Below, piece by piece: positions 22,964-59,545 of a stretch of 64,000 bases of DNA (positions within the stretch are counted from its first letter, which is position 1; each line of letters opens with the position of its first letter). Location: positions 773 through 64,772 of the forward strand of contig CAYWRG010000018.1 of assembly GCA_964460715.1 (NCBI GenBank), given 5' to 3'. Position numbers and translations under genes: made by a program. The notes beneath the pieces are model-generated. The model was not told the origin of the DNA. It searched no databases and saw only the letters and a list, made by a program, of their open reading frames with translations. Source of the stretch: an uncultured Opitutus sp. Lineage in GTDB: Bacteria > Verrucomicrobiota > Verrucomicrobiia > Opitutales > Opitutaceae.

Positions 22964-23031
22964 GACTGGATCGGCTCAAGGATCTGGCCGCCCGTGCCGA
23001 TAAAGGGGATTGCCGGAAATCTCCGGCTCCC

Positions 23032-24623: not shown

Positions 24624-24628
24624 TCGCC

Positions 24629-25090: not shown

Positions 25091-25114
25091 CCTTTGCTTC
25101 GCCTTCCTGATTTT

Positions 25115-26791: not shown

Positions 26792-26840
26792 GGCTCTGAA
26801 TCAACCGGTTAACTTCCCCTGTCCAATCGCCAATCGCGTT

Positions 26841-27053: not shown

Positions 27054-27114
27054 AGCCGGCCGGTCGGAGGATTTAGGCCTGACAGAGCGCGGTTGAGTGG
27101 TGAACACTGCCGCC

Positions 27115-27600: not shown

Positions 27601-27683
27601 TCTTTTTGCAGGAGAAAACCGAGGAAACGGAGAGTTTGACGCGGTGAAGCCCGCCCTCTGTTCTCGTCATTTCCTCCTGTAAG

Positions 27684-40424: not shown

Positions 40425-40512
40425 GCTCCGCACCGCGTTGGGTTGTCGCGGCCGTGTCCTCCCTGTCTCCCTTCTTGGATTTCTTCTCAAATCTGTTTCC
40501 ACTGCACCTATC

Positions 40513-41535: not shown

Positions 41536-41545
41536 GCGCGGGAAG

Positions 41546-42862: not shown

Positions 42863-43125
42863 TTAGCGAGAAGTGTGCGGTGTGAGGCGTCGTGTGAAGC
42901 CCATTTTGACGCTAATGATGCAAACGGCCCGGGGTGAATTCGGCTCCTGTGATCAGAATTGTATGGAAATGCCGGCCACGCCTGTTTTATCGGTTTTCTG
43001 CTCGTTCGACACGTGACTGCATTTTTCATCCCCGCTGTGGCCGCAAAATTCTCGCAGACGCCATTCTGCATGGCGGGCTGCTGCCTGAGGTCAACGGAAC
43101 TGGCGCGGGGAACGGCAAGTTTTTG

Positions 43126-44007: not shown

Positions 44008-44093
44008 GGGGCGCTGTACTTGTGGGTTCGCGTTTTTCGACTGACGGCCCATGCTGGCTGTAGTCGGATCCTGTCCGTCCATCTGACATCTTC

Positions 44094-45317: not shown

Positions 45318-45405
45318 GACGATCCCGTTCGATCCCCCTTGTTTCCGGCCTGATTTTCCACTCGTCGGGGCGGGTCGCGCCCTGTAGGGATATTCGCTTC
45401 ATTCC

Positions 45406-46353
45406 ATGAAGCATTTTCTCAAGGAGACCGACCTGCGACACCCGGCGATGGCTGAGGTGTTCGCGCTGGCCCGGGAGCTGAAGCAGAAGCGTGGCCGGCA
45501 CACGCCGCCGGTGCTTGCTGGCCAGACGTGGGCGATGATTTTCTCAAAATCGAGCACCCGTACGCGCGTCTCCTTTGAGGTCGGCATTCATGAGCTCGGC
45601 GGCAATCCGCTGTTTCTCAACCGCAATGATATCCAGCTCGGGCGCGGTGAATCGATCGAGGATACCGCGAAGGTGTTGTCGCGTTTTGTGCACGGCTTGA
45701 TCGTCCGCACCTACGACCATAGCGATGTCGAGCGCCTGTCCGCAGCGGGTACGATTCCGGTCATCAATGCCCTGACGGACTACCTGCATCCGTGTCAGAT
45801 CTACACCGACGCGTTCACTGCGGCCGAGCGCTGGGCGTCACCGGGTGGCGATCTGCTTGCCTCACTGAAGGGCCGCAAGATTGCGTTCCTCGGTGACACC
45901 GCATGCAACATGGCGAACTCGTGGATCCTCGGGGCGAATCTCTTCGGGATGACGATCTCTCTCGCCGGGCCGGTCGGCTTTGAGCCTGGAAAGGAAATTC
46001 AGGCGGAGCTTGCCAGGGAAGGCTGGGCTGGCCGTTACCACTTCACGAATGACCCGTATGAGGCCGTGGCCGGCGCGGATATCGTCTACACGGATGTCTG
46101 GGTGAGCATGGGCAAGGAGGAGGAGACGAAGGAGCGCATTCGCCTCATGTCGCCCTACGCCGTGACAGGGAAGCTCTTTGCCGCCGCCAAGCCCGATGCG
46201 CTCTTCATGCACTGCCTGCCTGCGCACGCAGGGGAGGAAGTCATGCAGGAGGTCCTCGACAATCCACGCTCCATCATCTTCGACCAGGCCGAAAACCGGC
46301 TGCACATGCAGAAGGCCATCATGGCCGTGCTCGCGCAGCGTCCTCGCGCCTGA
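45406..46353 (+). CDS. argF: Ornithine carbamoyltransferase
   Basis: FSKSSTRTRVSFE, HPCQ, FMHCLPA motifs. Confidence 0.93.
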   Translation: MKHFLKETDLRHPAMAEVFALARELKQKRGRHTPPVLAGQTWAMIFSKSSTRTRVSFEVGIHELGGNPLFLNRNDIQLGRGESIEDTAKVLSRFVHGLIVRTYDHSDVERLSAAGTIPVINALTDYLHPCQIYTDAFTAAERWASPGGDLLASLKGRKIAFLGDTACNMANSWILGANLFGMTISLAGPVGFEPGKEIQAELAREGWAGRYHFTNDPYEAVAGADIVYTDVWVSMGKEEETKERIRLMSPYAVTGKLFAAAKPDALFMHCLPAHAGEEVMQEVLDNPRSIIFDQAENRLHMQKAIMAVLAQRPRA

Positions 46354-46391
46354 TTTCACCCGTTTAACTTCATTCATCACTCCGTTTTATC

Positions 46392-47618
46392 ATGAAAATC
46401 GTTCTCGCTTACTCTGGTGGCCTCGACACCTCGGTCATCGTCAAGTGGCTCAAGGAAACGTACGACGCCGAGATCGTCACGTTCGCAGCCGACATCGGCC
46501 AGGAAGAGGAGCTCAAGGGGCTTCCGCAGAAGGCTCGCAAGACCGGGGCGTCCAAGCACTACACGCTCGATCTGATCGAGGAGTTTGCCCGCGATTTCAT
46601 CTTCCCGATGATCCGCGCCAACGCGATCTACGAGGGGCAGTACTATCTTGGCACCTCGATTGCGCGCCCGTTGATCGCGAAGGCGCAAGTTGAGATCGCG
46701 CACAAGGAAAAGGCCGACACCGTGGCGCATGGCGCCACCGGCAAAGGCAATGACCAGTGCCGCTTTGAGCTCACTTACATGGCGCTCGATCCGAAGCTGA
46801 CCATCATCGCCCCGTGGAAGATCGAGGCCTATCGTGAGAAGTTCCCGGGCCGCGCCGAGATGATCGCGTACTGCGCGAAGCACAATATCCCGGTTGAGGC
46901 TTCGTTGAAGAAGCCCTACTCGATGGATCGCAACCTTCTGCACATCTCCTACGAGGCGGGCATTCTCGAGGATCCGTGGTTCGACCCGACGACGAAGGCG
47001 AACAAGGGCATGTTCAAGCTTTCCGTTTCGCCGGAGGACGCACCCGACAAGCCCGAGTACGTCGAGATCGATTTCGAGAAGGGCAACGCCGTATCGGTCA
47101 ATGGCCGCAAGTTGACCCCGGGCAAGCTCCTCAAGGAGCTCAATCGTTTGGGTGGCAAGCACGGCATTGGCCGCGTCGATCTCGTCGAAAATCGCTTTGT
47201 CGGCATGAAGTCGCGAGGCGTGTACGAGACTCCGGGTGGCACGATCCTCATGCAGGCTCACCGCCAGGTGGAATCGCTCACCCTCGATCGCGAGGTCCTC
47301 CAGTTGCGCGATTCTCTGATCCCGAAGTATGCCCAGCTCGTCTACAATGGCTTCTGGTACGCGCCGGAGCGTGAAGCCCTGCAGGCTCTGGTCGATGAGA
47401 GCCAGCGCTACGTGAGCGGCACGGTTCGTCTCAAGCTTTACAAGGGCAACATCATCACCTGCGGCCGCAAGTCGAAGTACTCGATGTACGACGACAAGAT
47501 CGCGTCGATGGAGGGTGTGAAGAGCTGGTACAACCAGAGTGATGCGACGGGCTTTATCCGCCTGAACGGCCTGCGCCTCCGTGCGCGCAAGCTTGCGCAG
47601 GGTGGTCCGCGTCTTTGA
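46392..47618 (+). CDS. argG: Argininosuccinate synthase
   Basis: [15 protein letters not shown]...[14 protein letters not shown]... Confidence 0.95.
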
Positions 47619-47643
47619 TCACGTAGGCTTTACCATTTACCCC

Positions 47644-49065
47644 ATGCCCTCCGCCCAGCCGTTTCTGCACGAGGATTTTCTGCTGAACAGTGAATGGTCG
47701 CGGCTGCTCTATCACGAGCATGCGAAGCCGCAGCCGATCTACGACTACCACTGTCACCTTCCTCCCGATCAGATTGCCGCGAACCGTCAGTTCGCCAATC
47801 TGACGCAGATCTGGCTGGCGGGTGATCACTACAAGTGGCGTGCGTTGCGCACCAACGGGGTTTCCGAGGAGCTCATCACGGGCGCAGGCACGTCGGATTA
47901 CGAAAAATTCCTGGCCTATGCCCGCACCGTTCCTCAACTGGTGCGAAACCCTCTGCATCATTGGTCCCATCTGGAGCTGCGCCGGTATTTCGGGATCGAT
48001 CTGCTGATCAACGAGCAGAATGCGCCCCGCATATGGGAGGAGGCCAATGTGCGGCTGGCAGCGAAGGACATGTCGGTGCATGGCATCCTCGACCGGTTTC
48101 AGGTCAAGGTTGTCTGCACGACCGATGATCCAACTGACGATCTGGCTCACCACGTGGCTTGCGCGCGCAGCGGGCTCAAGACGCGGGTCTATCCCACGTT
48201 CCGCCCGGACAAGGCGATGATTGTTGGCCAACCGGCGGCGTTTCGTGCCTGGTGCGACCTCCTAGGGTCCCGGTCCAACGTGGAGGTGAAGGATCTGGTC
48301 ACGTTTTTGCAGGCGATTGATCGCCGGCACGCGTTCTTTCACTCGGTGGGTGGCCGCCTTTCGGATCACGGCATGGAGAGTATTCCGGACGTCGACTGCA
48401 CCGAGCGCGAGGCGGCGGCGATCTTTGCTTCGGCGTGGAGTGGGACCGCAGCGACACCTGATCAGGTTGCGAAATTCAGCTGGTTCATGATGCTCTTCTT
48501 GGGCCGCCTTGATGCCGAACGCGGGTGGACCAAGCAGCTTCACTTGGGCGCTTTGCGGAACAACAATGGACGGCTGTTGCGCAAGCTGGGCGCGGACGCG
48601 GGGGTCGATTCGATCGGCGACTTTCCGCAGGCGCGCGGCCTTTCCCGCTACCTTGATCAGCTGGATGGCGAAGAGAAGCTGCCCAAGATGGTTCTCTACA
48701 ATCTCAATCCGGCCGACAATTACGTCTTCGCGACCATGATCGGCAACTTCCAGGACGGCCGGCTTCCGGGGAAGATCCAGTTTGGATCGGGTTGGTGGTT
48801 CCTTGATCAGAAGGAAGGGATGGAGTGGCAGATAAACGCGCTTTCGCAGCTCGGTCTGCTGTCGCGTTTCGTGGGAATGCTCACGGATTCACGGAGCTTT
48901 CTGAGTTACGTTCGTCACGAGTACTTCCGTCGCCTCCTCTGTTCCATGATCGGAGCTGATGTGGAAGCCGGGTTGATCCCGGCTGATCGCGCACAGGTGG
49001 GCGGCTTGGTTGAGGATATTTGCTATCGCAACGCTGCATCCTACTTCGGTCTCACCACGGCCTAG
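47644..49065 (+). CDS. uxaC: Glucuronate isomerase
   Basis: ATG at 47644. FLHEDFLLNSEWSRLLYHEHAKPQPIYDYHCHLPP...GDHYKWRA... Confidence 0.9.
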   Translation: MPSAQPFLHEDFLLNSEWSRLLYHEHAKPQPIYDYHCHLPPDQIAANRQFANLTQIWLAGDHYKWRALRTNGVSEELITGAGTSDYEKFLAYARTVPQLVRNPLHHWSHLELRRYFGIDLLINEQNAPRIWEEANVRLAAKDMSVHGILDRFQVKVVCTTDDPTDDLAHHVACARSGLKTRVYPTFRPDKAMIVGQPAAFRAWCDLLGSRSNVEVKDLVTFLQAIDRRHAFFHSVGGRLSDHGMESIPDVDCTEREAAAIFASAWSGTAATPDQVAKFSWFMMLFLGRLDAERGWTKQLHLGALRNNNGRLLRKLGADAGVDSIGDFPQARGLSRYLDQLDGEEKLPKMVLYNLNPADNYVFATMIGNFQDGRLPGKIQFGSGWWFLDQKEGMEWQINALSQLGLLSRFVGMLTDSRSFLSYVRHEYFRRLLCSMIGADVEAGLIPADRAQVGGLVEDICYRNAASYFGLTTA

Positions 49066-49156: not shown

Positions 49157-49819
49157 ATGCGGGTCGCGGTGATTGAAGATCAGGCTCTGGTGCGCGAGTA
49201 TCTTGCGATGCTGGTGCGCAAGCATCTGGGCGTGCAGGATGTCCTCGCGATTGGATCGATGGCTGAGCTTCGACAGCGAGAGGAAGAGTTTGTAGGCGTT
49301 AATCTGATCATATTCGACATTGATCTCGGTGATGGGAGCACGATCGATTGGGCGGTCGAACGCGCACAAAAATCCGGGAGTGGGGTTATGGTTGCACTCA
49401 GCTCGATCTCGGGTGCTTTCCCCTTCAAAAAACTCCAGACGTCAGGGATCAGTCTTGTTCACAAGAACGACTGTGAGGCGGAGTTTGTCGATGTTCTCCG
49501 TCAAGCCTTGGGCGGGGCCGTTGTGTTATCGCGGCGTGTGATGGATTTAATTTCCGCGGCGGGGCGTGATCCGCTTTCGCCCATCAAGTTGCTCGGGGCC
49601 AAGGAGCAGCAGGTTCTTGGTCTGTTGGGTCAGCGCCTGAGTAACGAGGAAATATCCGAGCTGTTGGGTTGTGCCCCGAGCACGGTTGCGGATCATCGCA
49701 AGCGAATCATGCGCAAGCTTGATCTTCATCGGATCGAGGAGGTTATCGACTACGCGATCCGGCACGGAATGGTGCATGATTCCGTCGCGGCGGGGGCCCG
49801 CTCGGGAATCAAGCGGTGA
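49157..49819 (+). CDS. Response regulator, LuxR/NarL family (REC + HTH_LuxR)
   Basis: REC domain (MRVAVIEDQ...IIFDIDLGDG). C-terminal LuxR HTH (KEQQVLGLLGQRLSNEEISELLGCAPSTVADHRKRIMRKL). Confidence 0.85.
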   Translation: MRVAVIEDQALVREYLAMLVRKHLGVQDVLAIGSMAELRQREEEFVGVNLIIFDIDLGDGSTIDWAVERAQKSGSGVMVALSSISGAFPFKKLQTSGISLVHKNDCEAEFVDVLRQALGGAVVLSRRVMDLISAAGRDPLSPIKLLGAKEQQVLGLLGQRLSNEEISELLGCAPSTVADHRKRIMRKLDLHRIEEVIDYAIRHGMVHDSVAAGARSGIKR

Positions 49820-52800
49820 GTCGCTGACGGGTTTGCGCAATCTCCTCTGCCGCAAAAGGCAGGAGCTTGTCGACGGTTGACCAGTCGGCAGATTCAGCTG
49901 CGCTCTCGAGGAGAGCAATTTGTTCGGCGGCACCCTCCTCAGAGGCGAGCAGCAGGAGGGAGCGAAGAGCATGCGCTTCGCGTGGTGTCCGCGGATCTCG
50001 AAGTTCCGCCAAAGTGGTTGTGCTTTGCCAGCGCGCGGCGATATCGCTCGCGAGTTGCTCGCATGACGGCGCGAGATCCCCCAGGGATGCAAGTGGCGAG
50101 GCAGGCGCAGCCGCGAGATTGATGTCCAGCGAGCGGCGCGGTTGCAGCCCCTCGGAAAGGCCGCGGATTACTCGAGAGAGTTTTTCCTTGGTGATCGGCT
50201 TTGTGACAAAGCCAGTCATGCCGGCTGCTCGGGCCTCGTCTAGTTTCTCGGTGGTCGAATACGCGGTGACAGCGATCACCGGTGGCTTGGGATTCGGCAG
50301 CAAGGAGAGGATTCGCTTGCAGAGGTCGCCGCCGTTCATGTCAGGCAGCCGCCAGTCGGTCAGCACCAAGTCATACTGGCGTTCGCTGGCGAGTTTGAGG
50401 GCGGAGGTTCCGTCGGCCGCCCAGTCGACCTGGTAGCCCAAGGCGCGAAGGACGTGGCCCAGGGCGATGCGATTGTAGTCCTCGTCCTCGATGGCCAGCG
50501 CACGCGAAACCATCGCAGGAAGCTCGACCGCCTTTTCCGGTGGGCGGGCGTTTGGCAGCAGAACTTCGATCGCGAATTCGGTAACGCCATCGATGCTTGC
50601 CGCGGTGATGCGCCCACCCATGGATTGAATCAACCGGCGGCACACGGCAAGTCCCAGACCGGACCCCGGCATGCCGGCGGTTCGGGACCCACGTTGAAAT
50701 GATTCGAAGAGGCGCGGAATCTCGTCGACTGGGATGGTTGGACCGGAATTTCTTACGGCAATCCGGATTCGCGACCGTCCGCCGCCGGCATTTTCCACCC
50801 GGACTTCGATGCCGGCCTCACGGGGAACGCCATATTTTAGGGCGTTGGAGATCAGGTTGCAGGCGATCTGGCGGAGCTTTCCCGAGTCGCCGTGTAACCA
50901 TACTGCCTCATCGGGCAGAATCAGGGTGCATGCGCTCCTCTCAGGATCCATGACCATGGCGGATTCCTCAATGAGGGCCACGAGCTCGAAGTCCTGATTG
51001 GTGACGGCGACATCGCCTCGCTCGATTCGCGAAAAATCGAGAATGTCATCGAGCATAGAACGCAGCTGGTCGGCGCATCCGCCTAGTGTGCGAACCAGCA
51101 TCTTTTCCCTGGGTCCAACCTCGCGATCGGCAAGCATCGCGCAGATCCCGACAACTCCGTTGAGCGGATTGCGAATTTCGTGACTGATGCCGGCTAGGAA
51201 TTCCTCCTTCGCGGCGTTGGCCTTGCGAAGTTCGGAGGTTCGCAACGCTACGCGCCGTTCGAGCTCACGATTACGGCGCTCAAGTCGGCGAGTTCGAAGT
51301 CGGGCAAGACCGATGACAAGTCCTGCGGTGAGACCAACATGAAGCGGCCAGGCCCATGGGCGCAGCCACCACGGCCAAGGGCGGATGACGGTGAACTGCC
51401 GTTCGACTATAAGGCCGTTGCGCTCGGCTTGAGTGGATAGCAAGGTTTCGCCCCAGGAAACAGGTATCTTGAATTGGCTGCCTAGCTGGAGTTCTGACCA
51501 AGGACCCATTCCGACCCGCACTCGTAACTGAGTTGAAGGCGATGTCGGAAAGTCGGGCGAGATGGCCGTTACCTGAGCGAACTCTTCCGCGGAGGATCGC
51601 AAGTATATGCGCTTGTCTTCCACTCTTGCTGACCAGTTCAATTCAGGGTTAGGTGTTTGGGATTGCGGAATAGGTAGGCGCACGCGAATTACGCCGCGCG
51701 GGCCGGCTGCGAAGAGGTAATTCTCTGTCGCTGTAATGTGCTCTGCTCCGATTTGGGCAAGGCCTGGGATTTCCAGAGGCTGCCAAGTTCCGCCTTCAAT
51801 GGTTCCAAGTACGGGGTCGCGTCCAGGCCTAGTTGTTAACACAGCGAGTTTTCCCTGAATTAGAGTCGCATCGCGTGGATTCCCGTTCTCGATCTTTCCC
51901 ACTAGATTGACGTCAGAGTCGAGAATGGTGCCGTCCCAAAAAAGTAAAGTAACCTTGCCCGGTCTAACTTCGCGTACAGCTACACGACCGGTACCGATTT
52001 GCGCTTTGAGTTCTCCGGTGGGAGAAAATGTGTACGCGCCTCGAGTATTTGATCCGGCAATGAAGTTTAGGCCGTCACTCGCAAGACTGTTTATTACGCC
52101 ATCTATTGGGGCGGTGTGCGTGACCCCGTTGACTGTCAGTGAGACCATCCCGTGATCTAAAACCACAGCGGCAGCATCTGCCGTTACGGCAAGACCCTTC
52201 ACGAATCGATAAGGCAAGGTAGCTGATGATCCCTTAAACATTAGTATCTTATCGACGACGGAAGCGTCTTTAGTTGCGGGCCATTGTGTCGACTGATCCG
52301 AGATTGCTCGGATGTTGGTATCTTTTATTGTGATCGTTCCCGATCCAGTCATGACCTCTAATTCACCGCGTACGTTTGTTTGGACCTGAAAAATCGCCTC
52401 ATTATTTAACGCTGTGAACTGGGTTGTCCATGGGTCGCCCATCGCGAAAAGGCCATCTGCTGTTCCGATTAGATAGCCGCCATTGTAGGGAATGAAACAG
52501 TATACGTTTCCCTCAGGCCTCCACTCCCATGCCGATTCTTCTGCGCCGGGGCGGTAAGCGTATATGCCTGAAGTGAATGTTGGCACGACGATCCACGGGC
52601 CTGCTGAGGCGAGACCGACAATGCCTGAGTCCAATAGGTGTTGTGCGTCGGGGCCTCGGAAGACAGCGTTTCCGGCATCGGTTAAGATTCCGCGGCTAGT
52701 GGCAAGATAATCTCCGGCTTTCCAGTAAATGCGCAGGTCGCCTAAGGCGGAAAGATTGGGCTTCACTGTCAGGTCGCCGTTTTTCCAGATGCGGGGTGTA

Positions 52801-53321
52801 TCACCTGGGTTGCTAATGACTATGTCAGCGCCGATTTTTGCGACCCGGGTTTGGTTGCCTGATAAAGAAGGTGGCAGCACAGACTTTGATGAGCCATCCG
52901 GTGATATAAGCCATAACCCGTTGCGACCTGCGACCAGCCAACCTTCGTCAACTGGTTCCGAGGAAAGGTATTCGCCCTCCATTCCTGGAATCATGATGAT
53001 GTTTCCGTCACGAACCAATCCGCAGAAACCAGAGCCCGCTACGAGTAGATCCTCATCGCGATGGGATATCGTTTGGACGACTTGTCCGCGTGGCGTCGCT
53101 ACCAGCTCCCACGCGCCGTTTGGCATTCCAAACGCGACTCCTCCCTCGAAGCCTAGCGCAATCTGACCACGCGGTAATTCCTCGATGGTCCAGATGGGCT
53201 TGCTTCGCAAGAACTCTGGCAGGCGAACTTCGCTTACAAGCGGACCTAGGCCCGAGGCGCGTACACCAAAAAACAAGTAAGCAAGCAGAAAAAGCACCCA
53301 AGACTTAGTCATAAACTTCAT
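49809..53321 (-). CDS. Hybrid sensor histidine kinase: large periplasmic propeller-like sensor + HisKA + HATPase + REC + Hpt
   Basis: Track ORF 49809..53348; ATG at 53321 gives MKFMTKSWVLFLLAYLF. About 600-aa periplasmic region, then a TM segment. H-box FLAGISHEIRNPLN, followed by HATPase, REC (DLVLTDWRLPDMNG) and an Hpt-like C-terminus (EAHALRSLL). Converges on the LuxR regulator gene and overlaps it by 11 nt. Confidence 0.85.
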   Translation of the reverse strand: MKFMTKSWVLFLLAYLFFGVRASGLGPLVSEVRLPEFLRSKPIWTIEELPRGQIALGFEGGVAFGMPNGAWELVATPRGQVVQTISHRDEDLLVAGSGFCGLVRDGNIIMIPGMEGEYLSSEPVDEGWLVAGRNGLWLISPDGSSKSVLPPSLSGNQTRVAKIGADIVISNPGDTPRIWKNGDLTVKPNLSALGDLRIYWKAGDYLATSRGILTDAGNAVFRGPDAQHLLDSGIVGLASAGPWIVVPTFTSGIYAYRPGAEESAWEWRPEGNVYCFIPYNGGYLIGTADGLFAMGDPWTTQFTALNNEAIFQVQTNVRGELEVMTGSGTITIKDTNIRAISDQSTQWPATKDASVVDKILMFKGSSATLPYRFVKGLAVTADAAAVVLDHGMVSLTVNGVTHTAPIDGVINSLASDGLNFIAGSNTRGAYTFSPTGELKAQIGTGRVAVREVRPGKVTLLFWDGTILDSDVNLVGKIENGNPRDATLIQGKLAVLTTRPGRDPVLGTIEGGTWQPLEIPGLAQIGAEHITATENYLFAAGPRGVIRVRLPIPQSQTPNPELNWSARVEDKRIYLRSSAEEFAQVTAISPDFPTSPSTQLRVRVGMGPWSELQLGSQFKIPVSWGETLLSTQAERNGLIVERQFTVIRPWPWWLRPWAWPLHVGLTAGLVIGLARLRTRRLERRNRELERRVALRTSELRKANAAKEEFLAGISHEIRNPLNGVVGICAMLADREVGPREKMLVRTLGGCADQLRSMLDDILDFSRIERGDVAVTNQDFELVALIEESAMVMDPERSACTLILPDEAVWLHGDSGKLRQIACNLISNALKYGVPREAGIEVRVENAGGGRSRIRIAVRNSGPTIPVDEIPRLFESFQRGSRTAGMPGSGLGLAVCRRLIQSMGGRITAASIDGVTEFAIEVLLPNARPPEKAVELPAMVSRALAIEDEDYNRIALGHVLRALGYQVDWAADGTSALKLASERQYDLVLTDWRLPDMNGGDLCKRILSLLPNPKPPVIAVTAYSTTEKLDEARAAGMTGFVTKPITKEKLSRVIRGLSEGLQPRRSLDINLAAAPASPLASLGDLAPSCEQLASDIAARWQSTTTLAELRDPRTPREAHALRSLLLLASEEGAAEQIALLESAAESADWSTVDKLLPFAAEEIAQTRQRLTA

Positions 53322-53381
53322 CCGGAATGGGGTAGATAATCGGCTCACATGAAACGATGGGCAACGAGATATTCGTGGAGT

Positions 53382-53573
53382 ATGAAAAAGATGCTTTCCT
53401 TTTGCTCGTTTATTGCCGGATCGGCGGCCGCTGCCCTTTTGGCTTTAGGTTTCAGTGATGCAGCCGGCAAACTTGATCCAGTTTCCCAAAAGACGGTTAA
53501 TGCGTCATCTATGCAAACCGGCGAGGCTTCTGCACTACCATGCATCGACGCTGATCTTCGGTCATCGATGTAA
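53382..53573 (+). CDS. Small ORF with signal-peptide-like N-terminus (63 aa; start uncertain among 53349/53382/53391)
   Basis: MKKMLSFCSFIAGSAAAALLALGFSDAAGKLDPVSQKTVNASSMQTGEASALPCIDADLRSSM. GGAG at 53377-53380 is well spaced for the ATG at 53391. AT-rich region, so coding status is unproven. Confidence 0.3.
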   Translation: MKKMLSFCSFIAGSAAAALLALGFSDAAGKLDPVSQKTVNASSMQTGEASALPCIDADLRSSM

Positions 53574-53595
53574 CGGATAAACGTCTATCCGTATC

Positions 53596-54477
53596 ATGCT
53601 CTCACTCGCCTCCATCCGCTACCGTGACGTTTTCGCCGATGATGGCGGTCCGATTGAGCGCGTGATGACGGGTGATTGTGCAATTTTGGGCCAGAAGCAG
53701 AAGCAGGCTAACGCCTTCCTGCGTCCCGAGCTGTCGGTAGGGAAGCCCTCCCATGCCGTTTATGGTCAGGCAGACGGAACCGGTTCGGCGGAATCGCCCT
53801 CGATTGCCTGTCATATGGCGATTTCCGAGGCGCTGGAACGCTGGGCTTTCTTGGCGACTCATCGCAGCAAGGAAAGTGCGCGCTACGGCTTTGATGTCGA
53901 TCGCAGCTCGAATGGCATGGCGGCGTTCCCTGGCCTCTTCCGTGGTCAGGCGGCGCGCCGGGCCCGGATGGAGGCGCTTGAGCGCTACGCCCTGATTTCC
54001 TGGTGGGATGGCCGTTTTTCGGCCGAACGCGTGGCTTCGCCTTTCCCGGGAGTCGACGTCATTCGCATCCACCACAACGCAGGGCGGGGCGAAGTGGTTA
54101 TCCTCGCCCAGAAATCGCGGGCTGGAGTCGCCTATGGGCATGCTGCCGGTGGCACGCTGACCACGGCGACCTTGAAGGCAGCGGTGGAGCTGGCTCGCGC
54201 AGACTTCGTTATCACCGCACACCGGGCCAAGGGCGCCATTGTTCAGGCGGCCAATTACCTTGAGCGTCGAGCGCTCCATTTTTCCACCGAAGCCGGGCAT
54301 GACCAGTTTCTCGCCCGGTTGCATTCGCGGCCCAACAAGGCCGCGCCCTCGTGGCGGCCCGTCTTTGATGGGGAAATCGCAGGTCCTTGGTCACGATGGA
54401 CGACTGTCTGGCGCTGCGCGGTCGCCATGCCGACCAATGACTTTCTCGAGCCAAACGCGGACTTCTTCTTCTGGTAA
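53596..54477 (+). CDS. Short YcaO-like protein (putative ATP-dependent peptide backbone-modifying enzyme)
   Basis: 293 aa. GTGSAESPSIACHMAISEALERW (E78/E81) and SSNGMAAFPG...RMEALERYALISWW (E126/E129) resemble the two ExxE(R) ATP/Mg motifs of YcaO-superfamily proteins. Assignment is by motif recall only, with no search run. Confidence 0.55.
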   Translation: MLSLASIRYRDVFADDGGPIERVMTGDCAILGQKQKQANAFLRPELSVGKPSHAVYGQADGTGSAESPSIACHMAISEALERWAFLATHRSKESARYGFDVDRSSNGMAAFPGLFRGQAARRARMEALERYALISWWDGRFSAERVASPFPGVDVIRIHHNAGRGEVVILAQKSRAGVAYGHAAGGTLTTATLKAAVELARADFVITAHRAKGAIVQAANYLERRALHFSTEAGHDQFLARLHSRPNKAAPSWRPVFDGEIAGPWSRWTTVWRCAVAMPTNDFLEPNADFFFW

Positions 54478-54481
54478 AATT

Positions 54482-54709
54482 ATGGATACCCGAATCACCA
54501 CGCTTCTCGAGATCCGCGACCAATTTTATCACGACGGTCTTTCAGCGGCCGTTCGGCATGCCCGAGCTGCATTTGAGGCGGGCCAGATTGATGCCATGGA
54601 TGTCCCTGAGATTTTCATGGCACTCAAGAGTGGATCTTGGCGATTCCTCGATCACCTTGGCGCACGATCCGGTTCCTCTGGCGGTATGCTTTCGACGCCA
54701 ACCGGATGA
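54482..54709 (+). CDS. Small protein (75 aa), unknown function; Gly/Ser/Thr-rich C-terminus
   Basis: ATG 4 nt after the YcaO-like stop. Its stop overlaps the kinase start (ATGA at 54706-54709). MDTRITTLLEIRDQFYHDGLSAAVRHARAAFEAGQIDAMDVPEIFMALKSGSWRFLDHLGARSGSSGGMLSTPTG. Confidence 0.5.
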   Translation: MDTRITTLLEIRDQFYHDGLSAAVRHARAAFEAGQIDAMDVPEIFMALKSGSWRFLDHLGARSGSSGGMLSTPTG

Positions 54710-55494
54710 GCGAGGGTTTTACCAAAACCGAAGCCGCTCTGCTTGAAGCCTTGGAGCGTGAACGCGCTCTCCTGAAGCAGCGCGACTTGGTCAATGGTAT
54801 CGTTCTCCACGAGATGTCCAATGCCGTGGCTGTCGTGATGGGCGCGGTCGAGCTGATCAAACTCAATGGGACTCGCTCTCCCACCTTCCATTTTGCGCTC
54901 CAGCGGGTCGGCGGTGGTGCGCGGTTGATGAATGAAATGCTTTCAGGGCTCCGCGTCCTTCTGGGCGGTGAAGGCAATGACCCTGTTTACGAGCGCCGTG
55001 ATCTTCCGGCTTTTGTGAAGAGCATCGCCACAGATCCGGTTCTGACGGCGGAGAACGCCTCTACGCGAGTCGAAGTTCTCACACGGCTGACGGATCCAAC
55101 TCGAGTGTTTTGTCCCGCTCTCGTACGGCATGCGATTGCCAACCTCGTTCGCAATGCCCTTCGCTACAGCCCGCCGCCAAGGCCCGTCACCGTGATCGTT
55201 GGTGGACGGGCTGATCGTTGCTGGATTCACGTCCTCAACCGGGGCCCGAAAATTTCTCCAGAGATTGCGACGCGTCTTTTCGAGCCCGGGAAGAAGAACC
55301 CCAAAGGGGGCATGGGTTTTGGCCTGCACATCACCCAAGCCTGCGCCTTGCGGATGGGCGGCGAACTCGTCTTTGGCACGAGCCCAAGCGCGACAGTGTT
55401 TTCCCTAAGACTGGGAAACCGGCCGGATTCGATTGGCCGTAAGCTCGGCCGCGCGGCTGTACCTGGCTTCGGGCCCGTCGCAAGCAACGCTTAA
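54706..55494 (+). CDS. Soluble histidine kinase (HisKA + HATPase only; no TM or sensor domain)
   Basis: H-box IVLHEMSNAVAVV, N-box AIANLVRNALRYS, G2 box GGMGFGLHI. 262 aa from the ATG at 54706. Confidence 0.8.
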   Translation: MSEGFTKTEAALLEALERERALLKQRDLVNGIVLHEMSNAVAVVMGAVELIKLNGTRSPTFHFALQRVGGGARLMNEMLSGLRVLLGGEGNDPVYERRDLPAFVKSIATDPVLTAENASTRVEVLTRLTDPTRVFCPALVRHAIANLVRNALRYSPPPRPVTVIVGGRADRCWIHVLNRGPKISPEIATRLFEPGKKNPKGGMGFGLHITQACALRMGGELVFGTSPSATVFSLRLGNRPDSIGRKLGRAAVPGFGPVASNA

Positions 55495-56480
55495 AACAGG
55501 GCCGAGGCTGCAGTCCCGACGGCGGTGATCGGTCCTTGATCAGCCAGCCCATCAACAGCGCGGTCGACCTTGCGAAGCGTGCTTTGCGCCTCGTTGATCA
55601 GGGTGTCGTCATTGATCAACTTTCCGAGGGTGCCCGTGCCATTGTTCAACTTGTCGGATATGTCGCGCAGGTTCTTGGCCACGACTTTGATGTTCTGGCC
55701 CGCTTCCTTGTCGTAGATGAGGGCGCCCAGCGTGCCTTCACCGCTCTTTACCTGCTCAAGGATACCTTGGGCATTGCTGACAAAGAGCTTGGCCTCGGAA
55801 GAGGCACTGCGGAACTCTTCCACGGCTGACAGCAGACGGTTGTAAGCTTCAGGGTCGTTGACGAGCCGGCCGAGCGCACCCTCGCCCTGGTTCACCTTGT
55901 CCGTAATCTGCTGCAGGTTGGTGGTGATCTCGCCGATGCGGCCCTGGTTTTCGTCAACCATGCGATCAAGTTTGGCCATCAGGCCTCCGCCGGAGCCGCC
56001 TTCCGTGGCACCGGAAAACTGGCCTAGTGCCTGATCGATCTTTTTTCCGATCTCGCCAATCTGCGCGACCATGGAGTTCAGGTCCGGCGTATCCGCAGTG
56101 CCGATGCGATCGCCGTCGGCCAGCATGCCCGCGCTTTCGTTACCCATGGCAAGCGTCACATAGTTTCCGCCAAGCAAACCGGCCATCGCGATGGTCGCCA
56201 CTGCATCCTTGGAAATGGTGACATCCTTACCGATCAGGAGCACGGCCTCGGCCTCGCGACCGGCGAGACGCGTTTCTGAAACGGTGCCGATCCTCACGCC
56301 GGCCATGCGCACGTCGTCGCCAGCCTTCAGCTCCTTGAGATTCGGGAAGCGCGCCACCAAGGTATAGCCCTTGTCCCGGGCGATCGTGCCGCGACTCAGG
56401 GTCTCGAATGTCACCCAGATGAGGGCGACACCGAGCAGAAAGAAAAGGCCAACGCGGGCCGACATTTGTGAATTATTCAT
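55491..56480 (-). CDS. MlaD/MCE family protein with extended helical C-terminus
   Basis: N-terminal TM segment, MCE domain (LKAGDDVRMAGVRIGTVSE), and C-terminal repeats GEGALGRLVND / GEGTLGALIYD / GTGTLGKLIND. Confidence 0.85.
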   Translation of the reverse strand: MNNSQMSARVGLFFLLGVALIWVTFETLSRGTIARDKGYTLVARFPNLKELKAGDDVRMAGVRIGTVSETRLAGREAEAVLLIGKDVTISKDAVATIAMAGLLGGNYVTLAMGNESAGMLADGDRIGTADTPDLNSMVAQIGEIGKKIDQALGQFSGATEGGSGGGLMAKLDRMVDENQGRIGEITTNLQQITDKVNQGEGALGRLVNDPEAYNRLLSAVEEFRSASSEAKLFVSNAQGILEQVKSGEGTLGALIYDKEAGQNIKVVAKNLRDISDKLNNGTGTLGKLINDDTLINEAQSTLRKVDRAVDGLADQGPITAVGTAASALF

Positions 56481-57285
56481 GGTGGTTTTCCTCCAGAGAT
56501 TTGAAACGGGGATTGCGGATATCGATCCGCGGATTGAGAAAATTGTTGATGACGGGATCCTTGTTAGCGCGAAGGTCCGTGGGGGTTTGGACCGCTCGTA
56601 GTTTGCCCTGGTGGAGCACAGCCACGCGGTCGGCGATCGTCAGGGCGAGGTCACGATCGTGCGAAACCACGATGCTGGTCACCGCGAATTCGTCCTTCAG
56701 CGTGGCAATGATCTCGGCGATCGTCGCAGCCATCAGGGGATCGAGTTCGCTTGTCGGCTCGTCATAAAGCAGCAGTTGGGGCTCCATCACGAGCGCCCGG
56801 GCGATGGCCACTCGCTTTTTCATGCCGCCGGACAACTCCGCCGGCAGTTTATGGGCGGCATTCTCAATCGACAGGATGCGCAGGGCGCGCATCACGCGGT
56901 CACGAATTTCGTCCTTGGGGCAGATGCGGTGCTCCAGCGGATACAGGGCAAGATTGTCGTAGACGCTGAGCGAGTTGAACAACGCACCGGATTGGAAGAC
57001 GAGCGCGAGCGCGAAGCGGTCCCGCGTTTCCGGCTGGCGCGGATCGAGCCCGTTGATGGTCACTGATCCCGCGGTCGGTCGTTCGAGCCCGGCGATGTGG
57101 CGCATGAGCACGCTCTTTCCGGAACCGCTTGGGCCCATGATCACGAAGATTTCGCCGGGCTTGATGTCCAGCGAGACGTCCGCGAGCACGGATTGCGACC
57201 CATAGGACTTGGAAAGCCCGTTCACCTCCACGCGGACCGGACTGCGGTCGTCTCGGCCAAGGCAGTTATTGTTCTTCTTGGGCAT
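56473..57285 (-). CDS. ABC transporter ATP-binding protein (MlaF-like)
   Basis: ATG at 57285. Walker A GPSGSGKS, signature LSGGMKKRVAIARAL, Walker B LLLYDEPTSELD. Confidence 0.9.
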   Translation of the reverse strand: MPKKNNNCLGRDDRSPVRVEVNGLSKSYGSQSVLADVSLDIKPGEIFVIMGPSGSGKSVLMRHIAGLERPTAGSVTINGLDPRQPETRDRFALALVFQSGALFNSLSVYDNLALYPLEHRICPKDEIRDRVMRALRILSIENAAHKLPAELSGGMKKRVAIARALVMEPQLLLYDEPTSELDPLMAATIAEIIATLKDEFAVTSIVVSHDRDLALTIADRVAVLHQGKLRAVQTPTDLRANKDPVINNFLNPRIDIRNPRFKSLEENHHE

Positions 57286-57290
57286 GGTGT

Positions 57291-58043
57291 TCAGGCGAGC
57301 GCCTTGGTGATGAAGTAGTCGAGCGTCAGGATGCTGATCAGCGAGTAGACGACCGAACGCGTAACCGCATAGCCGATTTCGCGAGGCCCGCCGCGGGTGC
57401 GCAGCCCCGTGTTGCACGCAATGAGCATGACCGTGAACCCAAAGACCTCGGCTTTGATCAGACCGTCCAGCACGTCTCGTACGGATAGGAATTCGCGCAG
57501 ACTTTGAAAGTACAGCGCCGTGTCCACGCCGATGAAGGGAACGTAGTGGCACACCACCGCTCCCCCAAACCACCCGATGATGTTTCCGATGATCGTCAGC
57601 ACCGGCATGACGAGCAGAACCGCGAGCAGGCGGGGGAGCACCAGCATGCGCTCGGGCGGAATGTTCATGGTCACCAAAGCATCAACCTCCTGGTACACCT
57701 TCATGGACGCCAGTTCCGCCGTGACCGCACTGCCAACCCGGCCGGCGAGAAGGATTGCGACCATTACCGGGCCTAGTTCGCGGGCCATCGATTCGCCGAC
57801 GAGTGCGCCGATAAGCTGCTTGGCGCCGAACTCGCGTAGACTGATGCCGGACTGGAGGGCCAGCACGCTGCCGATGAAAAAGCACAGGATCGTGACGATC
57901 GGAAGGGTGGTGTAGCCGCACAGGTAGCCCTGTTCGGCGGTGCGCTTCAAAATGCGCGGCGCCGACGGCAGGGTTGCGAAGGCGCGGACAGCGAGCTGAA
58001 GCCCGCTGCCAAGACCTTCGAGAAAAGAGGAGAGACGGTTCAT
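57291..58043 (-). CDS. ABC transporter permease (MlaE-like)
   Basis: ATG at 58043. MlaE-family pattern (GPVMVAILLAGRVGSAVTAELASMKVYQEVDAL). Confidence 0.88.
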   Translation of the reverse strand: MNRLSSFLEGLGSGLQLAVRAFATLPSAPRILKRTAEQGYLCGYTTLPIVTILCFFIGSVLALQSGISLREFGAKQLIGALVGESMARELGPVMVAILLAGRVGSAVTAELASMKVYQEVDALVTMNIPPERMLVLPRLLAVLLVMPVLTIIGNIIGWFGGAVVCHYVPFIGVDTALYFQSLREFLSVRDVLDGLIKAEVFGFTVMLIACNTGLRTRGGPREIGYAVTRSVVYSLISILTLDYFITKALA

Positions 58044-59545
58044 GGAAGGGATGCCGCGCGTGACGAAGCGCCTGAATCGGGGCGGAAATTGCCGAAGCGA
58101 AGGCGCCAGCCTGTACCGGCCGCGCCTCGTTGCCACGCGAGTAAACCGCCGAGCAACGCAAACCGGCCTTGGTCGTGATTACGCTCCATGCTCAGCAGCG
58201 GCCCGATGTGGAATGCCGTCTCATTTGCGGTCTGATTGCGCTGGTAGCTGACGGCGCTCCAAAAGGCCACATGACGCGTGTCGCCGGGTTTGGCTTGGTC
58301 AAAGCGATACAGGGCAAACAAGGGTGACCAAGTGAGGCGTACTTGCTCGTTGTGCGGGAAGAATACCTCGAAGGGGCTCAGGATCTGCCACTGTTTCCGG
58401 CCAGCGCCATTGTTCCACGAACTCACGAGCGGCCAGACGTGGATCTTGGAGGCGGATTCCACTCCGGGTCGGATCGCGCTGCGCTGACTATTCGCGTTGT
58501 AGAGGAAATAGAGAAACTGGGTGCGTTCGTGGGCGAGTTCACCCTCGGTCCACGAGCTTTGGCGCCAGAGTGGCCATAGGATCCAGGTTTTCTCGGTGCC
58601 TTTGATCAGCGAATGCGAATAGAATGGCGCCCAGCGGTTGATGTGCCGGTCGTCACCCTTGCCCTGTACCCACAGCGGCCAGAGGTAGTTGCTCGCGTGG
58701 TAGCGATAGGGCGCCGTGCGGTCGACGTATCCGAAAAACGGCCACAGGTAGGTCTCGCTGCGATAGCCTTCGGACTCATCGCGCGCATAGAACGGCAGCA
58801 CGCCGATTTTGCGGCTGCTGGGCTTACCGTCGGACCATGTTGCGTGGTCATAGATAAGCGGCCACAGCGCGAAGCGCTCGCGGTACACGCCGGGTTTTTC
58901 CCTGTTGCCGTAGAGGGGCCAGAACTCGAATCCGGAGTGACCATCGCCCGACAACACCTTGATGAAAGGCCAGGGCACCGTCAGCGTGGTGGTGCCGCGC
59001 TTCTCGAAGCGGCCGTAGAGCGGGAAGAGAAACCAGGAAAGGCGATCCTGACCGAATCGCTGAGGGATGGATCCCGCCAGTGGAAATACGGCCCGGTAAG
59101 AAGCGCCGGGGCGCTCAGATGTCCGGGAGAAATAGACCGGCCAGATATCGAGGGCTTCCTGCGCGTCCGAAGCTGACGGGGCCGGCGATTCCGTGAAGGA
59201 CCGATTAATGAGATTGAGGAAACTCCAGCGGTATCCACCGGCCTGCATGCGGTAACTGAGCAGTGGATAAAACAGGTAAGCTTCAGCCAGTTGCCCATTC
59301 GACTTCCGGCGCTCAAGGTAAAGGGGGCGGATACCACCCGCAGACAACGTTTGCTCGTCGCCAGATTTGTGAAATCCCAATGCGCCCAAGGCCTCGACGG
59401 ATACCGATCCGATCCCTGTCTCCGTCGAATTCTCCCGCCGCTCAACGACGAAGGGCCAGAAATTCTGTTCACTCGCAGCCGCGCTGAGGGACGCGTCGAG
59501 CGCGCCCATCAGCACCGGAAGTGCAGCGAGTTTACGGAAGTTCAT
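58040..59545 (-). CDS. Secreted repeat protein with about 18 W/F-P-L/F motifs, unknown function
   Basis: ATG at 59545 gives the signal peptide MNFRKLAALPVLMGALDASLSAAAS. Recurring FWPFVV, LFYPLL, IWPVYF, FLFPLYG, FWPLYG, LWPLIY, LWPFFG, LWPLWV, LWPLWR, VWPLVS about every 20-30 aa. Its stop overlaps the mlaE start by 4 nt. Confidence 0.65.
   Translation of the reverse strand: MNFRKLAALPVLMGALDASLSAAASEQNFWPFVVERRENSTETGIGSVSVEALGALGFHKSGDEQTLSAGGIRPLYLERRKSNGQLAEAYLFYPLLSYRMQAGGYRWSFLNLINRSFTESPAPSASDAQEALDIWPVYFSRTSERPGASYRAVFPLAGSIPQRFGQDRLSWFLFPLYGRFEKRGTTTLTVPWPFIKVLSGDGHSGFEFWPLYGNREKPGVYRERFALWPLIYDHATWSDGKPSSRKIGVLPFYARDESEGYRSETYLWPFFGYVDRTAPYRYHASNYLWPLWVQGKGDDRHINRWAPFYSHSLIKGTEKTWILWPLWRQSSWTEGELAHERTQFLYFLYNANSQRSAIRPGVESASKIHVWPLVSSWNNGAGRKQWQILSPFEVFFPHNEQVRLTWSPLFALYRFDQAKPGDTRHVAFWSAVSYQRNQTANETAFHIGPLLSMERNHDQGRFALLGGLLAWQRGAAGTGWRLRFGNFRPDSGASSRAASLP

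Follow-up and report, generated by a model that had tools for sequence, protein, structure and literature searches.

A 64,000-nt stretch of DNA from an uncultured Opitutus sp. of the family Opitutaceae (GCA_964460715.1, contig CAYWRG010000018.1, positions 773-64,772 of the forward strand), referred to here as the window, encodes a 293-amino acid (aa) protein (53596..54477, forward strand) that resembles a strongly reduced YcaO enzyme and is called mini-YcaO in the following. The gene lies within a group of signalling genes. Directly upstream is a small gene for a precursor-like peptide (53382..53573, forward strand), and beyond it are a divergent hybrid sensor histidine kinase (49809..53348, reverse strand) and a LuxR/NarL-type response regulator (49157..49819, forward strand). 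Downstream follow a 75-aa open reading frame (ORF; 54482..54709, forward strand) and a sensorless soluble histidine kinase (54706..55494, forward strand). A preliminary description of this DNA had proposed a YcaO-like enzyme wired into two-component signalling, and the association is conserved in 83 verrucomicrobial loci and in eight distant ones. It was also not aware of any described system that pairs a YcaO-type enzyme with a histidine kinase; the searchable literature on YcaO and on signalling or the host groups yielded no description of a mini-YcaO/peptide/kinase module. In the window's own species, the peptide gene and the periplasmic domain of the hybrid kinase occur as alternative alleles beside an identical enzyme, an arrangement suggestive of a modified peptide signal and its matched receptor.

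Mini-YcaO was delineated from Pfam matches, an AlphaFold2 (AF2) model, Foldseek searches and family alignments. Two YcaO-like blocks had been picked out in the 293-aa ORF from the start, and both are present and invariant or nearly so in the family. Motif 1 (aa 61-83, nt 53776-53844) contains G61-T-G63...A75-I-S-E78-A-L-E81-R82-W83, and motif 2 (aa 104-131, nt 53905-53988) contains S104-S-N106-G107-M108-A-A-F-P112-G...E126-A-L-E129-R130; in two family alignments these residues are invariant or at least 90% conserved. A third block, motif 3, occupies aa 179-201 (nt 54130-54198). The acidic pairs of motifs 1 and 2 are separated by 48 residues (E78/E81 to E126/E129), compared to 124 in Escherichia coli YcaO (E75/E78 to E199/E202). 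The C-terminus is an invariant FFFW (nt 54463-54474) in which F291 is shared by the whole family; family C-termini are aromatic (F-F-F/Y-W or F-L/F-F), and no Pro-rich (PxPxP) tail was seen in the two alignments. The close spacing, a length well below that of known YcaOs (~293 against 363-586 aa) and the FFFW ending in place of a Pro-rich tail had all been remarked on in the preliminary description, and all were borne out.

The AF2 model, built on a 28-sequence alignment, has a predicted local distance difference test score (pLDDT) of 90.1 and a predicted template-modelling score (pTM) of 0.88. In a Foldseek search of the PDB, its 14 best matches were all YcaO chains (probability 1.00, template-modelling score TMq 0.44-0.59), from Methanopyrus kandleri YcaO (6cib; E 2e-6, TMq 0.58), McbD and E. 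coli YcaO, and the matches that followed were unrelated proteins with E values of at least 1e-2. The Pfam profile PF02624 matched mini-YcaO marginally (25.9 bits, with the cut-off at 25.7; E=7.9e-6; profile positions 113-180 on aa 102-170) and was matched by 15 of 18 diverse family members, with a best E value of 2.4e-9. The YcaO identity first read from the motifs is therefore upheld by the fold search and, narrowly, by the profile. An hhalign comparison of the family profile with the single E. coli YcaO sequence, a local alignment of 3.4% probability used solely to register motif 2, placed SSNGMAAFPG...EALERY on residues 179-205, so that E126/E129/R130 correspond to E199/E202/R203. The other two blocks were matched by inspection. 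GTGS...AISEALERW of motif 1 aligns with G60-K-G...E75-Y-F-E78-R79 (E78/E81/R82 to E75/E78/R79), and AYGHAAG.T...A..(R/K)AAVELAR of motif 3 with FGAHPDFGVALER286TVTELLQ (A283-E290), which pairs R/K194 and E198 with R286 and E290. Because it combines a YcaO fold with matching motifs, mini-YcaO is filed in the YcaO superfamily as a reduced form; by predicted fold and motifs it is a genuine but strongly reduced member.

Its reduction raises the possibility of a catalytically dead YcaO-fold scaffold, acting as a precursor chaperone for Sec or as a kinase-binding adaptor. The protein is far smaller than characterised YcaOs, lacks the Pro-rich C-terminus that cyclodehydratases need and scores only marginally in Pfam. 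Against this, the positions that bind ATP/Mg in E. coli YcaO have counterparts in the two ExxER pairs, the SNGM block and the motif-3 Arg and Glu of mini-YcaO. The ATP/Mg motif positions of all three blocks are kept in family members only 31-43% identical to the window protein, a conservation expected of an active site and not of a scaffold, which makes a dead scaffold highly improbable. A pseudo-YcaO was likewise ruled out, as the family is conserved and the catalytic motifs are kept, and a chance or artefactual ORF was rejected in view of the pLDDT-90 model and of homologues, equal in length, that number more than 1,100. ATP/Mg-dependent activation of a backbone amide is common to the characterised peptide- and protein-modifying YcaOs.

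Assignment to known YcaO classes was also considered. A cluster of the thiazole/oxazole-modified microcin (TOMM) or linear azol(in)e-containing peptide (LAP) type was ruled out on profile, partner, tail and dehydrogenase grounds alike; the TOMM cyclodehydratase model TIGR03604, for instance, gave 11.2 bits (E=0.12) against a cut-off of 219. A TfuA-type enzyme was ruled out as well, with no tfuA gene adjoining mini-YcaO and no TfuA domain in the window or among recurrent neighbours. The chemistry may nevertheless be a thioamidation, since the TfuA-independent YcaO of M. kandleri is the best structural match.

The family to which mini-YcaO belongs is large. A word-indexed search with the protein returned 1,154 clusters at 90% identity; the matches listed are almost all 292-295 aa long, and those with names are called 'hypothetical protein' or, in JGI annotation, 'RimO accessory factor YcaO'. 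An exhaustive profile search returned 591 clusters at 50% identity, 283 of them at E<=1e-30, and the best 150 of these 591 are nearly all of ~280-340 aa, with no long canonical YcaO among them. Judging from these cluster counts and the near-uniform lengths, mini-YcaO represents a subfamily that is populous and constrained in length but has no curated model. When one genome per species was scanned, 249 loci emerged, of which the best 80 were retained, and the final survey set comprised 83 loci. All retained loci are from Opitutaceae or other Verrucomicrobiota; they include L005, from the window's own species (Opitutaceae bacterium SMAG_U3642), and one from a cultured carrier, Oleiharenicola lentus 23ND54W-5 (L080).

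The neighbours that persist across this set were identified by unbiased all-against-all clustering of the 4,867 ORFs from the 83 loci. Besides the peptide, only four real families recur: the enzyme itself (82 loci), the hybrid kinase (67), the LuxR-type regulator (47) and the soluble kinase (36). By tblastn with the window proteins, every locus whose upstream flank extends to at least 4.5 kb has the hybrid kinase there in divergent orientation, and the regulator lies beyond it in 47 of the 83. No E1/ThiF, TfuA, dehydrogenase, protease or exporter gene is recurrent in the 83 loci, and no immunity, transporter or further tailoring gene is conserved there. In the window, a Pfam search of the 48 ORFs of at least 150 aa found no ThiF/E1, TfuA or nitroreductase-type domain. 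The lack of classical YcaO partners, at first noted for the window, thus extends to its relatives. Two partners of the enzyme are universally conserved, the peptide gene upstream of it and the divergent hybrid kinase, the latter being replaced elsewhere by a solute-binding protein (SBP) and a kinase.

The small upstream gene is the key partner of the enzyme. It was defined by ORF calling and locus comparison and encodes 63 aa from the start MKKM, or 74 aa from an ATG at 53349. As the preliminary description had stated, the product is signal-peptide-like, with a Lys-rich N-terminus and a long hydrophobic stretch, and such an ORF proved near-universal. Among the 81 loci with enough upstream sequence for the search, a signal-like small ORF ends just before the enzyme in 68 by rule and in most others by eye. 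A Lys or Arg is found within the first eight residues of 67 of the 68 peptides, the uncharged stretch has a median length of 18, and 53 of the 68 have a small-x-small site. The end of the hydrophobic region is conserved in most peptides (...LLxxLG(F/L)xxAA-E(K/S)(L/F/M)DP(V/L)). In the window, the Sec-signal-like leader reads ...LLALGFSDAAGKLDPV and the variable core ...MQTGEASALPCIDADLRSSM. In appearance the leader is a Sec signal peptide that ends in a small-x-small site for cleavage. Beyond it the sequence is hypervariable, many peptides having P-C or CxxC motifs and runs of Pro, Gly and acidic residues; Cys is present in the C-terminal part of 52 of the 68, often as P-C or CxxC, and absent from 16.

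Some relatives have multiplied the core or the gene. The precursor of L064 contains four copies of TPILGVPGEPDR, one clade (L001, L023 and L031) has a pair of Pro-rich units in tandem (AWEQPP...), and two repeats are present in L030. The precursor gene itself is found in tandem in L041, L070, L071, L073, L076, L079 and L083. The leader/core layout, the multi-core precursors and the tandem genes are hallmarks of a processed, ribosomally made peptide, as far as they can be read from the predicted proteins. Sec-signal precursors of ribosomally made peptides with post-translational modifications (RiPPs) that are modified in the cytoplasm are a documented but rare kind, exemplified by bufferins (PMC11626156). 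In six of the loci with tandem genes (L070, L071, L073, L076, L079 and L083), which form a clade, one precursor is Cys-free (...AESFDPVFLGGR...) and the other ends in ...GLPC(V/I)IEH; in this clade a PAS and receiver (REC)-type kinase located ~0.8-1 kb downstream replaces the soluble kinase.

The hybrid kinase is up to 1179 aa long, with a likely start at the ATG at 53321 (MKFMTKSW). It begins with a signal or transmembrane segment, followed by a periplasmic domain of ~640 aa, a second transmembrane segment (TM2; WPWWLRPW, aa 657), HisKA (713-778 in Pfam), HATPase_c (820-929), REC (951-1061) and a histidine phosphotransfer (Hpt)-like tail. The preliminary description had announced a propeller sensor, REC and Hpt in a divergent hybrid kinase. 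HisKA, HATPase_c and REC stand; the C-terminus has no Pfam Hpt match, only an AHALRS motif read by eye, and the propeller holds at the level of fold class only. Pfam found no AraC domain in the protein and no match in aa 1-655, including Reg_prop and Y_Y_Y. The periplasmic domain (aa ~30-640; 51429..53261, reverse strand) was characterised with an AF2 model and Foldseek. It has only three homologues, at 40-51% identity, among 5.8 billion proteins, and the resulting model from a four-sequence alignment is all-beta but of low confidence (pLDDT 64.8). Its top 11 Foldseek matches are the periplasmic domains of the Bacteroides hybrid two-component system (HTCS) proteins BT4673, BT4663 and BT3049 (E 5e-16 to 8e-14, TM-score ~0.24), which suggests a sensor of the twin-propeller class, again at the level of fold class only. 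The 220-aa regulator overlaps the 3' end of the convergent kinase gene by 11 nt; its Pfam GerE match (E=3e-12) agrees with the LuxR-type regulator originally named at this locus, and its REC-like N-terminus matches Response_reg weakly (E=0.018).

The closest link between peptide and kinase comes from the window's own species. Comparison of the window with L005 reveals a dimorphic cassette of ~2.2 kb (51436..53595) that comprises the sensor domain and the peptide gene. Within ~51436-53595 the two DNAs are 41-64% identical and essentially unalignable, whereas outside the block they are 99-100% identical at 50800-51400, 100% at 53600-58800 and 92-100% beyond, to 62474. The left edge of the block is just before TM2 and the right edge at the start codon of the enzyme. 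At the protein level, identity is 42% for the sensor domain and 38% for the peptide, compared to 99-100% for kinase residues 641-1179 and 100% for mini-YcaO. An exact look-up found the identical enzyme sequence on 11 contigs from several sequencing runs. Allele A is carried by the window, L094 and L098, and allele B by L005, L095-L097, L099 and L100. In contigs that allowed a comparison of peptide and sensor, the identity of each is 100% for members of one allele and 35-43% across the two alleles, while the enzyme remains 100% and the cytoplasmic half of the kinase 99-100% identical. No recombinant between peptide and sensor alleles was seen among the contigs with the identical enzyme. Allele B is nearer to the allele of a sister species than to allele A; for L007, the values are 60% versus 40% in the sensor and ~50% versus 20-27% in the peptide.

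Peptide and sensor domain are therefore discrete, co-varying alleles. The pattern resembles the pherotypes of agr and comQXP, except that the enzyme is outside the variable block. Replacement of the block in the window's own species is strong evidence for the pairing. Statistics across species play a supportive part: among close pairs (enzymes at least 80% identical), sensor identity and peptide-core identity correlate with a Spearman coefficient of 0.52.

Distant relatives show the same logic with different parts. Eight distant loci were recovered by a search seeded with a distant family member, and three of them are labelled Elusimicrobiales, Pseudobdellovibrio and 'Proteobacteria SG_bin7'. 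In all eight, a family-5 SBP gene precedes mini-YcaO, usually at a distance of 1-4 nt. In L091 this is only a reading frame that resembles an SBP (...YSGDPLDFDVYSHHVAF...) and lies, itself uncalled, in the space separating called genes (4238-5438), and in L088 an acetyltransferase, a tetratricopeptide repeat protein and a BrnA antitoxin separate the SBP from the YcaO gene (5188-6666), which suggests that these two modules are decaying or being remodelled. A kinase gene is present in seven of the eight; six have it divergent and upstream, whereas in L086 it follows the enzyme downstream. Those kinases whose sequences were read have a short periplasmic loop. The SBPs appear to be exported, since the four examined have signal or lipoprotein N-termini. 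Family 5 includes oligopeptide-binding proteins such as OppA, so a receptor of this family would fit a peptide ligand. A 48-81-aa ORF with a signal-like N-terminus is found in seven of the eight loci. The distant peptides share a leader (...(L/V)G(L/F)...) and have Gly-rich tails, and that of L087 retains AESLDPV. As read from the predicted proteins, four components make up the invariant set across phyla: a small peptide that is exported, a receptor outside the cytoplasm, a kinase, and mini-YcaO within the cytoplasm. L086 (Elusimicrobiales) additionally encodes a major facilitator superfamily transporter and a radical S-adenosylmethionine protein a few kb upstream of the module (1307-4053), which were not seen in the other distant loci.

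These observations bear on an account in which the peptide acts as a RiPP effector, for instance one that is antimicrobial, binds metal or protects the periplasm, and the two-component system merely regulates its production. The kinase would then sense an unrelated cue, for instance a glycan, or would sense the product for autoinduction or immunity as in nisin. Many RiPP clusters do carry a kinase/regulator pair, the peptide has a leader/core layout with multi-core and tandem precursors, and the sensor model resembles the glycan-binding sensors of Bacteroides HTCS proteins. Sec-exported periplasmic RiPPs of a non-signalling role also exist, namely the bufferins (PMC11626156). However, the 83 loci conserve no gene for immunity, transport, proteolysis or tailoring, and without a sensor that reads the peptide it would be difficult to account for the joint replacement of the two while all else stays identical. 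The receptor of the distant loci, moreover, belongs to the SBP family that includes the OppA-type oligopeptide binders. We consider an effector role unlikely, whether the kinase responds to an unrelated cue or to the product.

Alternatively, the small protein could stay anchored in the membrane and modulate the hybrid kinase in cis, its periplasmic tail contacting the sensor as in MgrB-PhoQ. Small kinase modulators such as MgrB consist of a hydrophobic helix and a short Cys-containing periplasmic tail. In the peptide, too, one hydrophobic helix at the N-terminus is followed by a short tail with Cys, and the peptide co-varies with the sensor domain. At the end of its helix, however, the small-x-small site is followed by AE(K/S)xDP, as for a signal peptidase site, and tandem core repeats such as the four in L064 suggest proteolytic release. 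The soluble or lipoprotein SBPs of distant relatives imply a free ligand, and an anchored modulator would leave the ATP-dependent enzyme without an obvious role. An anchored modulator thus appears very unlikely.

The genes downstream of the enzyme are tightly coupled to it in the window. The stop codon of mini-YcaO (TAA, 54475-54477) is followed after 4 nt by the ATG of the 75-aa ORF at 54482, and the TGA of that ORF (54707-54709) overlaps the kinase ATG at 54706 as ATGA, in agreement with the layout first reported. The ORF has no hydrophobic segment and no family match in Pfam, NCBIfam or PADLOC, and its product is probably a small protein of the cytoplasm; translational coupling links it to both neighbours. 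The 262-aa soluble kinase has a dimerization and histidine phosphotransfer (DHp) region with H35 (LHEMSNAV) and HATPase_c (Pfam, E=2.6e-15). It had been described as a HisKA/HATPase protein; the HATPase_c half is confirmed and NCBIfam kinase models span the DHp region, aligning from aa ~11, but there is no Pfam HisKA match. A 66-94-aa ORF of shared pattern almost always separates the enzyme from a close-downstream soluble kinase, again with tight coupling. This kinase is found downstream in 36 of the 83 loci, and neither it nor the 75-aa ORF occurs in the distant relatives. The pair is a clade-specific extension of the operon, and the soluble kinase, missing from more than half of the loci, was rejected as the primary partner of the enzyme. 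The gene order small ORF, enzyme, small ORF, kinase expected for the neighbourhood therefore holds widely for its upstream member and within a clade for its downstream part.

The same genes frame the question of whether mini-YcaO modifies a protein, be it the 75-aa protein, a kinase or a housekeeping target, while the upstream peptide is an independent partner of the kinase. For E. coli YcaO, RimO/S12 has been proposed as such a housekeeping target. Within the superfamily, the thioamidation of McrA is reported as a case of a protein substrate (PMC5589413), and the best structural match of mini-YcaO is the M. kandleri YcaO. The tight coupling of the enzyme to the 75-aa ORF and soluble kinase in the window and its invariance between peptide alleles would both suit a protein target. 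On the other hand, these two genes are missing from more than half of the loci and all distant relatives, whereas nearly every locus has the upstream peptide, placed immediately 5' of the enzyme or, where an SBP gene precedes the enzyme, of that pair. A cytoplasmic enzyme could moreover not reach the kinase sensor or the SBP, both of which are extracytoplasmic. A protein substrate is, on this evidence, decidedly improbable.

Candidate regulatory elements surround the peptide gene. A 7-2-7 palindrome, TACCTTTNNAAAGGTA, has 18 perfect or near-perfect occurrences within the 1.04 Mb of locus sequence, distributed over 17 loci of a sister clade (L030, L035, L040, L042-L047, L050, L054, L056-L059, L061 and L062). 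Sixteen of these 17 have a copy that precedes the called peptide start by 85-87 nt; in L035 it is at -46, where the start may be mis-called, and L059 has a second copy at -109. The element, whose arrangement we take to resemble that of NarL heptamers, is a good candidate operator for the LuxR/NarL-type regulator and would close an autoinduction loop. At the equivalent place in the window's clade, a CACCC-N7-GGGTG-like element overlaps the first codons of the kinase and is suggestive of a regulator site.

Only ~60 nt separate the kinase start (~53321) from the peptide start (53382) in the window. A conserved GCAACG(C/A/G)GATA(C/T)T located ~10-20 nt upstream of the peptide start, at 53359-53373 in the window and in L005-L022, may be a -10 region. 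An imperfect palindrome of 15+15 nt, 80% complementary (53568..53597), spans the peptide stop to the enzyme start and could form a hairpin that sets the peptide:enzyme expression ratio. A sigma-70 promoter scan returned no promoters, a terminator scan remained at background level, and Rfam found nothing in 52800-55800.

Taken together, these genes would operate as follows. The small gene would encode a precursor whose N-terminus combines a Sec-type signal with the recognition sequence ...LLxxLG(F/L)xxAA-E(K/S)(L/F/M)DP(V/L) and whose C-terminal part is hypervariable. Before export, mini-YcaO would use ATP/Mg to activate a backbone amide of the peptide without an E1-like, TfuA or dehydrogenase partner, yielding an azoline, a thioamide, an amidine or something new. 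The reaction may even be one so far undescribed for YcaOs, because many cores lack the Cys/Ser/Thr patterns typical of azolines. Sec would then export the peptide and the signal peptide would be cut after the small-x-small site; in relatives with two to four tandem core repeats, further proteolysis would release several copies. The mature peptide would bind the propeller-type periplasmic domain of the divergent hybrid kinase or, in other phyla, an exported binding protein of family 5 that works with a small kinase. From the kinase, a His-Asp(-His)-Asp phosphorelay would lead to the LuxR/NarL-type regulator, probably feeding back on the peptide-enzyme operon, and the downstream 75-aa protein and soluble kinase would supply a clade-specific second input into the same circuit. 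Peptide core and sensor would evolve as a matched pair, giving pherotypes within one population, while the enzyme reads the conserved leader and stays identical.

On balance, we think it probable that the locus specifies a YcaO-modified, Sec-exported peptide pheromone sensed by a matched kinase. That mini-YcaO is the only cytoplasmic enzyme of a conserved peptide-signalling cassette is held with the same modest degree of confidence. The earlier suggestion that the enzyme generates or gates a signal for the kinase is consistent with all results and has been sharpened by the allele data, while the catalysis it presupposed is suggested by sequence and model. More tentative, and more apt to fail than to hold, is the wider proposal of an unrecognised class of peptide quorum sensing in diderms (Verrucomicrobiota, Elusimicrobiota and Bdellovibrionota-like bacteria), with a partner-free YcaO, a signal peptide that doubles as leader, and mutually private pherotypes.

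Several points weigh against the pheromone reading. From the comparisons above we infer the peptide as the enzyme's substrate, the catalysis and its product, export and cleavage, the peptide as ligand of the kinase, the feedback and the diffusible nature of the signal. At the level of the enzyme, the Pfam match is borderline, no NCBIfam or TIGRFAM YcaO model matches mini-YcaO significantly, and no YcaO came up in PDB sequence searches, whether the protein or the family profile served as query. The calling of signal peptides relied on simple rules only. No nucleophile is universal in the peptide cores, as 16 of 68 lack Cys and the distant peptides are Gly/Ser/Asn-rich, so azoline formation cannot be the general reaction. 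The solved structures nearest to the low-confidence sensor model bind glycans and not peptides. Among close pairs the peptide tracks the cytoplasmic part of the kinase about as closely as it tracks the sensor, and over all pairs the association between sensor and peptide-core divergence is weak (partial Mantel r=0.09, p=0.005), with most cores saturated. The NarL-like palindrome is confined to the sister clade, and the window holds a degenerate counterpart with one recognisable arm. Finally, the enzyme is invariant between alleles, unlike in agr and comQXP, and must therefore act on or through the conserved leader, or not on the peptide at all.

The flanks of the cassette are largely ordinary. 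An arginine-biosynthesis cluster identified with Pfam (40438-47618; semialdehyde dehydrogenase, ArgJ, amino-acid kinase, class-III aminotransferase, ornithine carbamoyltransferase and argininosuccinate synthase) and a glucuronate isomerase (47581-49065) form a housekeeping flank. On the other side, a Mla-like lipid-transport operon (55491-58136, reverse strand; MlaD, ABC ATPase and MlaE permease) abuts the soluble kinase with a stop/stop overlap (55491-55494); MlaD adjoins the cassette in several close relatives but not in the wider family. Further away, the ORFs at 19278-28754 (952, 253, 284, 256, 209 and 497 aa), mostly without a Pfam match and one with an RDD domain, have a third-position GC of 0.63-0.70, compared to 0.75-0.9 for most others in the window, and may represent a foreign island. 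PADLOC found no match to a known defence system, and neither enzyme nor peptide has a paralogue elsewhere in the window.

If the signalling interpretation is true, the cassette represents a new class of peptide quorum sensing in diderm bacteria. To our knowledge, enzyme-made peptide pheromones are textbook matter in Firmicutes and almost unheard of in Gram-negative-type bacteria, where N-acyl homoserine lactones and other small molecules dominate. The cassette would be a compact and widespread counter-example to Gram-negative small-molecule signalling. Its two peptide/sensor alleles in an otherwise identical background constitute a natural experiment in which specificity is directly testable. 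A YcaO of ~290 aa that apparently needs no partner would help to show what the YcaO core requires in order to recognise and convert a substrate, and may be a source of new backbone chemistry. In addition, more than 1,000 'hypothetical proteins', some of them mislabelled as RimO accessory factor, are given a context.

Comparison with known systems brings out what is shared and what is distinct. Like other YcaOs (E. coli 4q85, M. kandleri 6cib and McbD 6gos), mini-YcaO has the predicted fold and the G-x-G...E-x-x-E-R, S-N-G-M...E-x-x-E-R and A-x-x-R...E blocks, and it presumably carries out ATP-dependent activation of a backbone amide. It differs from the YcaOs compared (363-586 aa) in its ~293 aa, from E. 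coli YcaO in acidic pairs 48 and not 124 residues apart, and from PxPxP-ended YcaOs in its invariant aromatic FFFW. Unlike known YcaOs, it has no E1-like protein or RiPP recognition element, TfuA or dehydrogenase; its fixed partners are instead a Sec-signal peptide, a kinase and a receptor. In bufferins, too, cytoplasmic modification of a precursor with a Sec-type signal is followed by export through the general pathway without a dedicated transporter (PMC11626156), as appears to be the case for the cassette. Bufferins, however, rely on a multinuclear non-haem iron-dependent oxidase (MNIO/DUF692) and DUF2063, bind copper in the periplasm and have no matched sensor kinase.

On the receptor side, the modelled sensor resembles those of the Bacteroides HTCS proteins BT4663, BT4673 and BT3049 in that a large all-beta domain of the twin-propeller class is fused to HisKA-HATPase-REC. 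The hybrid kinase differs in lacking a fused AraC output, which is replaced by a separate LuxR regulator, and any Reg_prop or Y_Y_Y Pfam match; the Bacteroides sensors bind glycans. LuxP-LuxQ is a kinase system that depends on a binding protein. Similarly, the exported SBP beside a small-loop kinase in distant relatives suggests that the SBP captures the ligand and relays its presence to the kinase, but here the SBP belongs to family 5, of peptide/oligopeptide type, and the presumed ligand is encoded next door beside a YcaO.

The closest parallels are staphylococcal agr (AgrD/AgrB/AgrC/AgrA) and ComQXPA of Bacillus. In these systems, peptide and sensor form pherotypes and the modifying enzyme co-diversifies with the peptide. 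As in both, the window links a precursor, one modifying enzyme, a sensor kinase and a regulator (49157-54477), and peptide and kinase sensor exist as alleles within otherwise near-identical genomes. In contrast to both, the hosts are diderms and not Firmicutes, the enzyme is a YcaO and not AgrB or ComQ, and mini-YcaO does not co-diversify with the peptide. Export apparently proceeds through Sec by means of a signal-peptide leader, and the receptor is a periplasmic propeller or an SBP instead of a polytopic membrane sensor. The parts, a YcaO, a RiPP-like precursor, a two-component system and pherotypes, are all known; what is new is their combination and the minimal, partner-free YcaO at its centre.

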